From: Octopus vulgaris
Taxonomy: Eukaryota
Length of the DNA: 64,000 nt
NCBI GenBank assembly: GCA_951406725.2
Contig: OX597815.1
Coordinates: 117,428,001-117,492,000, forward strand
Reading direction: 5' to 3'
Shown here: positions 18,830 to 51,144 of the stretch, piece by piece
Position numbering within the stretch: position 1 is the first letter of the stretch
How the letters are laid out: each line of letters opens with the position of its first letter
Notes under the pieces: generated by a model
Databases searched by the model: none
Told to the model about the DNA's origin: nothing
The model's input: only the letters and a program-made list of their open reading frames with translations
Translations under genes and position numbers: made by a program

Positions 18830-18901
18830 ATGCCTTCTAGAGCTAATTCACCCCAGGCAGATGACATGGATCCTTTGGCTGGTCCTGACGATAACACACA
18901 G
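18830..18901 (+). CDS. Amino-acid transporter (Aa_trans, SLC32/AVT1-like), coding exon 1
   Basis: Acceptor TTTCGTAG ends 18810, in-frame TAA at 18812, ATG 18830, MPSRANSPQADDMDPLAGPDDNTQ, donor CAG|GTAAG; phase 0 matches the next exon. Confidence 0.7.
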
Positions 18902-20539: not shown

Positions 20540-20859
20540 GTGTGTATGTCCCACCAATATCGCTTGACAACCGATGCTGGTGTGTTTACGTCCCCGTAAC
20601 TTAGCGGTTCGGCAAAAGAGACCGATAGAATAAGTACTAGACTTACAAAGAATAAGTTCTGGGATCGATTTGATTCAACTAAAGGCGGTGCTCCAGCATG
20701 GCCACAGTCAAATGACTGAAACAAGTAAAAGAGTAAAAAGAGGGTAAAGAGTTATAATATCTGCACATAATATAGCTCATTAGATTAAATGTATGTTGAG
20801 TTGTCACACGCTATTGCCGATTCCTTAGAATTATGACGCGTCTCTTTATGCCCTGTTAC

Positions 20860-21365
20860 TTAACGGTCTAACGAACAAAAATTAATTAAATCAGTAACAT
20901 ACTGAATCAAGCAACAGGTGAAGTCGATATTATCAACTAAATCACATGAAGGCAGCACTGTAGCATCGTCGCACACACGAAAGTGACAGAGGGTACTGAC
21001 TATAGCACCGCTTTTACTAAAAATAAGAGTTAAACAACTCAAAAGCCACAAAAGCACAGTCTTAATGACTGACAAAGGGAGGTAAGTCCCCAGCGTACAT
21101 AGTCGGATGGCGATTTCGGATTTTCATGTAGATCATCATAATCCTCATCAGCAACTTTTAACGCCTAGAGTTAAACACAACTACCTCTATCAGTCTTATA
21201 AGAAAGATCGTTGAAAACATGTGCTGATTTTCAAAACGGTATAAGAGTTAAAACAACAAATTAAAAAGGGTGCTGTTTTAACTCTTATTTTTAGCAAAAG
21301 CAGTGCTAGTCAGTAACCACTGCCACTTTTTGTGACATTTATTAATTTTGCATTAGGTTCTAATT
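20860..21365 (-). repeat. ~500-nt rod-like fold-back element carrying a hammerhead
   Basis: Arms 20980-21040 vs 21272-21330, 21063-21082 vs 21181-21200, and 20868-20892 vs 21338-21356. Confidence 0.85.
21093..21164 (-). ncRNA. Canonical type I hammerhead ribozyme (AUC site)
   Basis: Minus strand: GCGU-UAAA-AGUUG-CUGAUGA-GGAUU(17 nt)AAUCC-GAAA-U(CGCC)A-UC-CGACU-AUGU-ACGC; intact core, stem I with internal loop; predicted cut between window positions 21106 and 21105. Confidence 0.85.
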
Positions 21366-21387
21366 GCTAATAAGCCACCCATTTTAA

Positions 21388-21423
<36 letters not shown>

Positions 21424-21460
21424 AAAAAAGGAGATGTCGAACACGAGTGGTGATATATAA

Positions 21461-23597
21461 AAAAGGAAATGAAGAAAATGCTGACAAATAATTGAAGTAA
21501 TTTAAGTAATTTAATTAGGTGAATGTTCTTTTACCGGTTGCGCATTTGTTATGCTTATCAAAATATAAAAGAGAGATTAGAGTCTGTCTCTTATATGTGG
21601 AAAAAAAGAGGCTCCACTTACGCCAACTTAGTCATGGGATACCTGGAAATCACCCTCTATAATAACGTTCTTAACCAATTTGGCACCACTCTCCACACAC
21701 ACATAGAGAAGAACTGGAAGAGATATCTTGATGACTGCTTCATCCTTTGGCCCGAAACCGTCGAGAAGCTTAACGAATTTCACACTCTTATAAATGGGCT
21801 CAACACAAACATTATTTTCACAATGGAATACAGCCCTCAACAAATTCCCTTCCTCGACATCCTCATTAAAATTCACAACAAAAAAATAGAAACAGACATA
21901 TACTACAAGCCCACAGACTCCAAGCAATACCTCCCTTTCAATTCATGCCACCCTAGACACGTTAAAATTAACATTCCCTACAACTTAGCCAAGAGAATTT
22001 GCACTATAGTCTCCAATAAAAACACCCGTCTCTTACGTCTACAAGAACTCAAGGGCACATTAACAAGCAGGGATTACCCCACGTCACTAATTGACAATGG
22101 GATCCAACGCGCCCTAAAATCAGCACGCAGGAACTTAGACGCCCTAAACCTGTTACATCGAAACCCCATACTCTACCATACATCTCTACACACAACCCCC
22201 TCAACAATGAAGCTTTTGACACCATCCTCCAGAACATTCCTATATTACAAAAGGACCATAGAATGAACCAAATCCTCCTAACACACGAAATCATAAAGAG
22301 CAAAAGGCAACCCAAATCATTGAAAACCATCCTAACAAATGCCAAAGTACTGCCAACCACAACAACTAAACCCACAGTAAACAAATGCAATAGACCCAAC
22401 TGTGGTATATGCATCAACCTAATAGAAGGTCCGGAATTCCTTTTTAAACAAGGACAACGTTTCACAGTAAAACACAACTTCACATGCGCATCAGAAAACC
22501 TAGTATATGTCTTAACTTGCTCGGGCTGTAATGAACACTACATAGGCCAAACAAAAAATAGCCTCCGCCAACGCATGACTGTCCACAGATCCCAAATAAA
22601 AATACAGGAATATAGAAAAATAGCATTTAGTGCACATATTGATACCTGTGCCGCACAACTCCATCCCAATTTTAGAATCTTTCCCCTCTACAAATTTAAA
22701 GACAATGCCACTCATACCCAGCGAATAACCATGGAATCCCACCTTATTAATAAATACAGACCACTTCTAAACACATGCCCCTAACACGAACCCACAACAA
22801 ACACACTTACACCTGCACACACCCTACACACACCTTTACCCAGATATTAACACCATGACACACACAAATATATGGTTCCACACATACACATAATTGAATA
22901 CGGGTGCAAAACATCCAACACTATTTTTTGGAAATGGCTGTAAATATTGACTTCACACAAATACGTTGCTTCCCGATACAGGCACAAGGCCAGCAGAACT
23001 ATAAATATTGAAAATTGTACCCACACACACACACATATATACACGCGCGCGCCCCAACATACATATAAACACACACGCGCGCGCGCGCGCGCGCACACAT
23101 ACATACATACAGCTCTCCCTGTTCTAAACGAACTTACTTATCCAGTCAAGCGGAAAATACACTCCCTAACTAGCTAAAAAGCTATTTAAAATATCCACAT
23201 GACGTCTACTGACCAGCCTGAACAATAAGAAGTTTCAACAACACTATTTTCGAAAATTCTAAACATTCACGTGACCTCTTTATTATGGCCAATAAGAAAT
23301 TTTAGGCGGGACACTAGCCAAATTTTAACTTCTCTGGAGCCTTTTTTCTTACCCCAGCACCAACTTCCATTCAAACATTCACGTGACCCCTTCATAATGA
23401 CCAATCAAAATTTTAGGCGCGAAACCAAGCAAATCCAAAACAACTCTGGAGCCTCTTTTTTTCCACATATAAGAGACAGACTCTAATCTCTCTTTTATAT
23501 TTTGATAAGCATAACAAATGCGCAACCGGTAAAAGAACATTCACCTAATTAAATTACTTAAATTACTTCAATTATTTGTCAGCATTTTCTTCATTTC

Positions 23598-23602
<5 letters not shown>
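21461..23602 (+). mobile_element. 5'-truncated Penelope-like element (RT plus GIY-YIG) with inverted pseudo-LTR copy
   Basis: PTYANLVMG..WKRYLDDCF..IPFLDI..TDIYYKPTDS.QYL..SCHP RT and CNRPNCGIC..NLVYVLTC..C..HYIGQT..LRQRM..H GIY-YIG, with one frameshift near 22130-22265; 21461-21616 is the reverse complement of 23447-23602; (TA)n on both sides. Confidence 0.95.
23497..23537 (+). ncRNA. pLTR hammerhead, U3-A8 core with A13C lesion (probably inactive)
   Basis: UUGAUAA-GCAU(AACAA)AUGC-GCAA-CCGG-UA; antisense copy at ~21531-21562. Confidence 0.6.
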
Positions 23603-23658
<56 letters not shown>

Positions 23659-25213: not shown

Positions 25214-25322
25214 GCTTCATCTTCACATCGTGGTATTTCCTACGTTACGGCAAGTATATTTATTATTGGAGAAATTGCCGGAACTGGTCTGCTTACTCTA
25301 CCTAAGGCTTTGGAAGATACGG
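25214..25322 (+). CDS. Amino-acid transporter coding exon 2
   Basis: TTTTACAG|GCT..; ASSSHRGISYVTASIFIIGEIAGTGLLTLPKALEDT (TM1 motif); G|GTAAG, phase 1. Confidence 0.93.
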
Positions 25323-48721: not shown

Positions 48722-50540
48722 ATGATGGCCGTCCACTCGTGACCGAGGAAGACCATTGTTGACCTTCAGGAACATTGTGCGCTCTAGGACTAACTTATAG
48801 TTTGCATTTGCAGCTCCGTTGGTGGCTAATGAGACCTGCTTTTGACAAGCATACACGACTGCAAACATTGCAAACCAAGCTTTCCCCATTCACTACACCA
48901 GAGCAGCACGCTGTAAGTTCTTCATGCAGAATACGTTCTCTTTCAAAGGTGTCGACCCCTCCTTAACCTTCCTTCATCTGTGGCGATGACAGGCATTGCT
49001 CTTCTAGTCAGTTTCCTGCATATCGCAGGCCTTTAATGAGGACTTGACACAGTCCTTAAATCGCAGCCTTGGTTTCTGCTGGGGTCTCTTTCCATTCACA
49101 AGTTCCCCATATAGCATCTGTTTAGGGATCCTGCTATCCTTCATTTTAATAAGGTGTCCAGCGTAACCGGTGCTTGTGCACTATCACCTCAATACTCAAG
49201 ATATCAGCTGTCCTCAGGAATCTGTGTGTCTGAGACATCTCTGATTAAAGTGCTCAAGGGCCCTTACATGACGTTTGTAAAGGATCCATGTCTCACATGA
49301 GTAAAGGAGTGATGTCAGTACACATGCACTGTACACAGCAATTTTTGCATGCTTTGTGATGCCATGCTGGGACCAGACACGAGACTGAAGAGACCGGAAG
49401 GAATCAGTTGCTCTCTGCGGCCTGAAAGAAATTTCATCATCCAGAGAGCAAGAACGGCTGAGTGTGCTGCCCAGGTAGACAAACTTGTCTATCACTTTCA
49501 GAATTTTTCCTTCAACCAAGATAGCTGGTTCCACATATGGATTTCCTGGTGCAGGTTGGAACATTACAACAGTCTTGTTCAGGCTAATGCTGAGTTCAAA
49601 TGCCGTGCAGGAAGCAGAAATACGATTATTAAGTATTTGCATATCATTCACTCTATGAGTGACTAAGTCACAGTCATCTGCTTAAAGGAAGTCACGAATA
49701 AGAGACAGGAAGACTTTTGAATTGGCAGCAAATCGGCGGCCAGAAAATCGATACTTGACATATATTACCAGAGACTAACCTTAGAAAAAGCATGAGTAAA
49801 AGCAACAGCAAAGTACAAGGAAAAGAGAGTTGAGGCAAGGATGTCACCCTGCTTGATACCATTCTCTACAGGAGTGGGTCCCGCCATTCCACCACCAACA
49901 TTGACCCAAGCGTCCATCCCATCATGAAAGGATTTAATTATAGATACAAAGTGATCCGGACATCCAAGTTTGTCAAGTATTTTTCATAGCAAGGCCCCAT
50001 TCACAGTACCAAAGGCCTTCGTTATATCAATGAATACCTGGACAAGATCCATACTTTGCTCATAGCATTTCTCCTGCATCTGTCTTGCAGTGAAAATCAT
50101 ATCCATTGTTCCTCTACCAGATCGGAAGCCACATTGATATTCAGATAGGACATCATTTACGAGACACCCATTCAGGCGGGTAAGAAGAATATTTGCCAGA
50201 ACCTTGCCAGCAGCTGATAGTAAAACAATACCTCTGTAGTTACCACACATTGTTCTGGCTCCCTTTCCTTTATAGAGGGGAAGAATAATTGCATCCTTCC
50301 AGTCTTTAGGTACTGCACTATTCCTCCAGACTGCATAATAAGAAGGGACTGTATGATGTAATCACCACCAAATTGCAAGACCTCAGCACAGATTCCATCC
50401 ATTCCATGTGCCCTACCAAGATTCAATTTACTTATTGATGTCATTACCTCATCTATTGAGCGCGTGGAATTTAAGGAGCCAATGATAGGTCTTTGTTGCA
50501 GAGTATCAATCACTGTTTCATCCACAACTGACTCATAAAT
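48722..50540 (-). mobile_element. 5'-truncated RTE (BovB-like) LINE, RT pseudogene
   Basis: NYRGIVLLSAAGKVLA..QCGFRSGRGTMDMIF..QEKCYEQ..FIDITKAF..KQGDILA..; catalytic YADD mutated to *ADD; FVYLGS; frameshifts. Confidence 0.92.
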
Positions 50541-50588
50541 ACATACATACCTACATACATACTTACATACATACATATATATACATAC

Positions 50589-50639
<51 letters not shown>

Positions 50640-50654
50640 TACATACATATACAC

Positions 50655-50702
<48 letters not shown>

Positions 50703-51144
50703 GGTAAAGACCCCCTTCGGTCACGACACTGACTATGGGATTGCACCTAGAAAGTTACCCTCCTAGACACAAGTCTGGGCAAGGTTGTTTATGGAAGACC
50801 AGCAGTCGCCCATGCATACCAGCCTCCCCTCTCCACGCCACCAGTGTTATCCAAGGGAAAGACAAAGGTCGATACAGCTTGGCACCAGTGACGTCGCAAC
50901 TCATTTCTACAGTTGAGTGAACTGGAGCAACGTGAAATAAAGTGCCTTGCTCAAGAACACAACACGCAGCCCGGTCCGGGATTCGAGCTCACAACCTCAC
51001 GATCGTAAGCTCGACGCTCTAACCATACATATACTTACATACATATACATACATATATATATTATATATTATACCTACTTCGTTTTTTTTTGTATCTAGA
51101 TTGCAAGATTCTTTATGTGAATTCGTGTGTTGAAGCAAATTTTG

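Follow-up and report, generated by a model that had tools for sequence, protein, structure and literature searches.

The window analysed here, the whole stretch of 64,000 nucleotides from the Octopus vulgaris genome, contains a gene for an amino-acid transporter with coding exons (PF01490) on the plus strand at 25214, 34055 and 35065. With the putative first coding exon (Table 1), the element described below would lie in the intron between 18866-18901 and 25214-25322, apparently the first coding intron of the gene. As proposed in an earlier, sequence-only reading of this DNA, the ribozyme is antisense to the transporter, whose coding exons are on the plus strand. Given this orientation and the lack of a ribozyme in the plus-strand piece of the element, the transporter pre-mRNA would not be cut.

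The locus at 20976-21390 is a decayed copy of a 335-base hammerhead-bearing genomic repeat together with an inverted piece of the same repeat. The 335-nt consensus unit was built from the retrieved loci, and all loci were then mapped onto a trimer of this unit. The second piece (21277-21390) is arranged head-to-head with the main segment, crosses the monomer junction and carries what we call the 'long' 3' end. Both pairs of arms noticed earlier, outer and inner, exist, and the outer arms are the stretch common to the main segment and the inverted piece (monomer positions 236-292). The view of the locus as one rod of ~500 nt had to be abandoned: the element occupies 20976-21390, so that 20860-20975 is excluded and the 3' side is extended to 21390, and the fold is branched. 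No match to 20860-20975 was detected in the other 29 of the 30 loci, and this flank is covered by one contig per DNA run vs many over the element. A run that carries another organism code also contains the junction of flank and element. The (TA)n run at 21393-21420 is likely the target sequence of the insertion. Between a (TA)n and the flank, at 20550-20760, there is a common short interspersed repeat, and similar text recurs often in the window and in the loci; this repeat may be SINE-like.

Table 1 Features of the octopus locus and its surroundings (positions in the window)
Feature	Position	Strand	Remarks
Putative first coding exon of the host transporter	18866..18901	+	in frame with exon 25214-25322
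Flank	20860..20975		outside the element
Main segment	20976..21270	-	monomer positions 2-292 of the 335-nt unit, 5'-truncated; 93% identity to consensus
'Short' 3' end of the main segment	20976		
Outer arm 1	20980..21034		monomer ~236-290 within the main segment
Inner arm, 3' strand	21060..21087	-	
Type I hammerhead motif	21093..21164	-	predicted cleavage after C 21106 (21106/21105)
Inner arm, 5' strand	21175..21203	-	extends stem I; pairs with 21060-21087; present in consensus
Inverted 5'-truncated second piece	21277..21390	+	monomer 236 to 335 to 14; 91% identity to consensus
Outer arm 2	21277..21329		equivalent monomer stretch in the inverted piece; identical to arm 1 in 48/53 columns
'Tail'	21330..21390	+	monomer ~293-14; at the long end only
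(TA)n microsatellite	21393..21420		at the long 3' end
Separate younger 5'-truncated PLE-type element	21421..23606	+	RT-like frame from 21592; GIY-YIG frame 22164-22781

The motif at 21093-21164 is, by its sequence, a real type I hammerhead. The minus-strand core is intact as claimed, with CUGAUGA at 21151-21145, GAAA at 21117-21114 and AUC with C17 at 21106, and the previously recognized 5-bp stem II (21144-21140/21122-21118) and bipartite stem I (21156-21152/21105-21101 and 21164-21161/21096-21093) were located. Stem III consists of 2 bp with a tetraloop. At 21093-21164, the elements CUGAnGA, GAAA and NUH follow one another in this order, with stem I (open), stem II and stem III in place. A hammerhead descriptor found one match in the 64-kb window and none in 20 block-shuffled windows; the Rfam hammerhead models gave no match, neither at the gathering score nor at E<=10. 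The changes specific to this copy are at 21153, where a stem I pair becomes G·U, at 21138 and 21125 in the interior of stem II, and at 21109 in the stem III loop, where the loop palindrome is lost.

When 20860-21365 was folded, the minus strand reached -163.2 kcal/mol (z -9.3) and the plus strand -130.8 kcal/mol (z -6.3). The minus strand folds better, and the rod described earlier did not appear: the structure is branched, and the hammerhead conformation is not that of minimum energy (-37.2 kcal/mol when constrained vs -42.3, that is, 5 kcal/mol above the local minimum). An energy advantage of the minus strand is also seen in the unrelated flank (-22.8 vs -15.2). The copy at this locus is likely inactive. 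A single hammerhead at the locus means one cut and no released circle, so that the locus does not count as 'active' by the two-hammerhead rule given in the accessible part of a recent preprint (Li, Clavereau, Pollet; bioRxiv 10.64898/2026.07.22.740005). Nor does the locus agree with the circle of ~500 nt envisaged earlier, the unit being 335 nt and the locus containing one hammerhead. We regard this locus as a probable fossil. No sequencing run is recorded as RNA; in one guessed to be RNA, 20848-21088 is covered by a 241-nt contig and other copies by a few contigs, from which strand, level and circularity are not readable.

A search of the genome (2.8 Gb) yielded 890 candidates, of which 40 were scored, giving 161 matches. 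Relatives of the element are dispersed in the genome as partial head-to-tail tandems. Their identity to the consensus has a median of 86% (range 70-93, n=95); among the 40 scored of the 890 candidates, the closest of the other copies reach 79-87% identity to the window copy, so that no young near-consensus copies surfaced in this set. The same 40 contain no long intact array, the longest tract being 690 nt (~2 units). The unit is low in GC, carries one type I hammerhead and contains no ORF in the ORF listing. Folded as a circle, the consensus unit reaches -94.3 kcal/mol (z -5.0) in the sense orientation and -77.6 kcal/mol (z -3.3) in the antisense orientation.

The layout was counted in 76 non-redundant loci with 122 segments, 20 of these loci having been chosen by a 22-nt motif near the long end; 11 overlapping loci, 3 near-identical duplicated loci and 10 repeats among 30 later loci were left out. 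A head-to-head inverted pair is present in 47 of the 76 loci (and in 10 of the 20 in the set picked solely by the 22-nt motif), and a tail-to-tail pair in none. Segments longer than one monomer account for 47 of the 122, and 5 span two cleavage sites. Inversion breakpoints, arm ends and arm lengths differ at each locus, and the overlap of the two inverted pieces ranges from 26 to 368 aligned columns. In two groups of loci (L066-L068, C14; L021/L053, C5), element and flank are near-identical, which identifies these as segmental or tandem duplications, not new insertions.

The 3' ends of the segments are concentrated in two intervals of the unit, positions 1-31 (50 ends) and 274-313 (45 ends), which together cover 21% of the monomer and contain 95 of the 122 ends. 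The two sites are ~50 nt apart, and the same two peaks are obtained from the first 56 loci alone (72 of 96 ends). Among the 47 inverted pairs, 22 combine one long and one short end, one has two long ends and none has two short ends; at least one end falls outside both intervals in 24 pairs. By a loose criterion applied without a control, a dinucleotide run lies within 40 nt of 75 of the 95 clustered ends. We also considered that the ends might be set by the ribozyme cut (position 164) and rejected this: 1 of the 122 3' ends and 5 of the 122 5' ends lie within 6 nt of the cut, with ~5 expected by chance. At the window locus there is no target-site duplication (TSD), the longest word common to both flanks being 6 nt, in a test to which a TA duplication within the (TA)n run is not visible; at the ends of the other loci, there is neither poly(A) nor a TSD. 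In the suggested examination of genomic copies for TSDs and tandem arrays, no TSD and no fixed terminal inverted repeat (TIR) were found; tandems do occur and are partial and short. The 5' truncation points form a cluster at unit positions 220-239 (18 of 96 segments), immediately 3' of the long inner stem, which may be a stall site of the reverse transcriptase (RT) or the 5' end of the template.

The hammerhead is an integral part of the element, as the earlier reading implied, and covaries across two subfamilies. A sister subfamily, ~73% identical to the main family, retains the core and the layout, with paired positions changed together. Its cleavage triplet is AUA, its palindromic stem III loop is longer, and stem I is followed on the 3' side by an additional hairpin; by eye, its inner arm is re-paired with different letters. 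The sister loci are L133, L135-L138, L141 and L142 (about 1340-1750, sense orientation). The covariation alignment comprised 21 sequences, namely 14 of the 39 ungapped copies of the main family (family A) and 7 sister-subfamily copies. Paired cells make up 88.5% of this alignment vs 23-49% in slid controls, and in six pairs the type changes, between subfamilies or within one, in 5-8 sequences each; this covariation rests on one or two subfamily or lineage splits, with no more doubly changed pairs than in shuffles (196 of 500). One pair of stem I varies within family A, being U-A in 24 copies, C-G in 19, U·G in 10 and another combination in 8. Judging from the covariation and the re-pairing in the sister subfamily, selection in the source lineage acted on the RNA of the hammerhead and the inner arm, and for the inner arm the earlier proposal of a selected RNA structure is borne out to this extent.

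Beyond the (TA)n run at the long end lies a young Penelope-like (PLE-type) element (Table 1), which we used as an in-genome control for the insertion signature. The GIY-YIG domain matches PF01541 (E 5.9e-7), and the RT-like frame has no Pfam or PDB match; we take it to be a reverse transcriptase from its motifs together with the GIY-YIG match downstream. The window copy is 5'-truncated and frame-shifted and has its own inverted 3' piece (21421-21616) and a one-sided tail of ~42 nt. This PLE family shows a cysteine motif in the linker (by eye), two 3' ends 42 nt apart, running into (TA)n, and inverted pieces. Many siblings are 99-100% identical in the endonuclease frame and several have open frames of 784 aa, suggesting that the family has probably been active recently. 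We considered this family as the autonomous partner of the octopus unit and rejected it: the two have no sequence in common, the monomer matches the PLE in none of its 29 other loci, and no hammerhead-like motif was found in the 30 loci scanned. Given this lack of common sequence, we regard the PLE as a neighbour that arrived later, and its role as partner as unproven.

PLE insertions occur as partial tandems, accompanied by an inverted 5'-truncated copy next to them and by a tail of 30-40 bp on one side, according to the accessible part of Craig et al. 2021 (PMC8557442). In the accessible part of PMC11167929, the tail is bounded by two internal start sites of the RT, and ribozyme cleavage is dispensable in vitro. 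The octopus family resembles PLEs, as far as the accessible parts of these two papers describe them, in its partial tandems, inverted 5'-truncated copies, one-sided tail and bias to microsatellites, as well as in two internal RT starts that bracket the tail, the ribozyme cut not being the template end. It differs in having no ORF, a unit in tandem with itself, a tail of ~50 nt and a full hammerhead. The insertion layout, the clustering of ends and the microsatellite flanks are PLE signatures, seen also in the neighbouring PLE. PMC11167929 is presumably Frangieh et al. 2024.

Altogether, the locus is most likely an animal non-LTR retrozyme in a decayed copy, with a single ribozyme and an inverted head-to-head layout, probably inserted by a PLE enzyme. 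A source array would be transcribed, and its hammerheads would cut the multimers into 335-nt monomers that would then form circles. The reverse transcriptase/GIY-YIG enzyme of a PLE would nick a (TA)n or (CA)n tract and begin two cDNAs at fixed positions within the monomer (~17 and ~300), neither of them at the cut at 164. Joining of the two 5'-truncated cDNAs head-to-head would produce the inverted arms and the tail on one end only, and the copy would subsequently decay without a preference for G·U. Segments of more than one unit require a circular template or an uncut multimer, and the data fit both. The more specific proposition, that the insertion ends record how a PLE reverse transcriptase began at two fixed sites on a ribozyme-made circle and copied more than one round in the octopod lineage, is tentative and appears somewhat doubtful. 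Against a PLE-mobilised retrozyme stand the failure to find an autonomous partner, with no match of the monomer in the 29 other loci of the neighbouring PLE, the lack, by eye, of a common upstream flank at 22 free 5' ends, and the tail of ~50 nt vs the 30-40 bp given for PLEs.

The insertion signatures, all of the PLE type, would also be expected if the monomer were the pseudo-LTR (pLTR) of an autonomous PLE and the loci extremely 5'-truncated PLE insertions. Of 55 other loci, 5 have PLE-like coding fragments in their flanks, and, in the accessible parts of PMC8557442 and bioRxiv 10.64898/2026.07.22.740005, pLTRs contain hammerheads and are related to Xenopus retrozymes. We nevertheless consider this origin unlikely. 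Upstream of the monomer comes the previous monomer, not coding sequence, as in the 47 of 122 segments that exceed one unit; the coding fragments in the flanks are not joined to the 5' side of the unit in a common way and are found in 0 of 20 further loci; and stems I and II are full here, in contrast to the minimal PLE hammerheads of PMC7229834, so far as its accessible part describes them.

Returning to the retrozyme insertion, its outer arms raise the question of strand-specific pairing. All six transitions between the arms had been read as G·U pairs on the ribozyme strand, and the ~500-nt inverted repeat could accordingly be one RNA rod or circle selected for pairing on that strand. Five of the six stand. 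The outer arms contain three G·U and no A·C on the minus strand (20986/21323, 21009/21302 and 21016/21295), and the inner arm contains two G·U, one of them, 21187/21075, being a feature of the family consensus; we take the sixth to be an ambiguous junction column. Within their 53 aligned columns, the outer arms further show two transversion mismatches and a 2-nt indel, so that the arms differ by more than transitions. All three outer-arm transitions, and all three in pairs of the ribozyme stems that are Watson-Crick in the consensus, yield G·U on the minus strand, the minus strand folds better than the plus strand, and the core of the window copy is intact, which agrees with such selection.

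If the arms were kept as RNA of the ribozyme strand, G·U would be in excess of A·C across copies. No such strand bias was found elsewhere in the family, an outcome that the earlier reading itself had listed as refuting its view. Direct alignment of arm to arm gives a G·U:A·C ratio of 220:220 (31 of 35 inverted loci, 4 being without an alignable overlap), counting via the consensus 267:274, and 8 of 10 further independent loci 36:28. For the 45 Watson-Crick pairs of the ribozyme and the inner arm, 59 loci not selected for the core, with the window left out, give 156:149, and a second count gives 177:182. Among 66 copies with at least three such transitions, 4 (the window copy included) are all G·U and 9 are all A·C; thus, a run of G·U as at the window locus occurs by chance in some copies. 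The two outer arms are two copies of monomer 236-292 produced by the inversion, with breakpoints specific to each locus, so that they are not maintained as RNA structure in the way first suggested. With arm lengths that vary by locus, transversions and an indel in the arms, an energy advantage shared by unrelated flank and one ribozyme providing one cut and no circle, the selected rod is largely refuted at the family level and, for this locus, very unlikely.

After insertion, the copies decay without a G·U preference. An ADAR footprint, an excess of A>G on the sense strand, was considered and rejected: A>G and T>C are both at 0.0398 per site, and these equal rates mean that there is no editing footprint. 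The core is slightly better kept than expected (80 changes observed vs 101.7 expected, p=0.01), and the whole core is kept in 26 of 66 copies. From this, a weak constraint on some copies is possible; variation among the source elements outside the core could also cause the excess conservation.

Mobilisation of a retrozyme by a LINE appears highly improbable. LINEs are left open as helpers in the accessible part of PMC7229834. The inversions would then have to be explained by twin priming. Twin priming of the L1 type makes head-to-head 5' inversions, and its two pieces do not duplicate each other. In the octopus loci, both pieces reach the 3' end region of the unit and overlap, and the tail is one-sided, with neither poly(A) nor TSD. 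That the locus is a miniature inverted-repeat element (MITE) with a hammerhead captured by chance, as 55-bp inverted arms, AT-richness and many dispersed copies might suggest, can be dismissed for practical purposes, as the earlier reading had held, on account of variable arms that are not fixed termini, the lack of a TSD, the head-to-tail tandems and the integral hammerhead that covaries in two subfamilies. The likeness to MITEs is one of short, non-coding, dispersed elements with a fold-back look; the octopus element differs in having no fixed TIRs and no TSD, in its tandem unit and in its 5' truncation.

The class of animal non-LTR retrozymes, to which the element most likely belongs, is already known (Cervera and de la Peña 2020, PMC7229834). 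As described in the accessible part of that paper, these have in common with the octopus family a type I hammerhead with a 2-bp stem III and a tetraloop, a low-GC head-to-tail repeat of 150-450 bp with a self-paired monomer, no evident LTR, PBS or PPT, and a genome that also contains PLEs; the units of mussel and axolotl measure 330-390 bp. The octopus arrays differ in being short (~2 units) and old (median 86%) and in having no TSD. The main text of that paper, in its accessible part, mentions no octopus or other cephalopod, no inverted pieces and no tails. The octopus family is apparently undescribed: searches of the openly accessible papers returned no description of a cephalopod retrozyme. 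Such a family may be listed in the supplements of PMC7229834 and of bioRxiv 10.64898/2026.07.22.740005.

So far, the case for which enzyme moves animal retrozymes has been built on co-occurrence and homology. In the accessible part of bioRxiv 10.64898/2026.07.22.740005, retrozymes are argued to be non-autonomous PLE derivatives. The octopus family agrees with that account in the PLE link and in monomers and dimers dispersed over chromosomes, many of them intronic. The evidence there is co-occurrence and pLTR homology in vertebrates, whereas here it is the structure of the insertions; a homologous pLTR was not found here, in a comparison with one PLE family. The accessible main text of the preprint contains no analysis of inversions, tails or target sites. 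The octopus family thus adds evidence for PLE mobilisation at the level of insertions, namely the inverted head, the one-sided tail and the microsatellite targets. Its ends ignore the ribozyme cut, and it provides a defined RNA with two predicted start sites. Were the circular-template reading true, the family would be direct genomic evidence that animal retrozymes move via circular templates with PLE machinery. The family is also a warning that loci of this kind, when read singly, resemble MITEs or viroid-like rods.

Elsewhere in the window, broken frames at 150-1060 look, by eye, like a gag/protease region that includes a CCHC zinc knuckle, and broken frames on the minus strand at 49768-50720 resemble, also by eye, a LINE reverse transcriptase.
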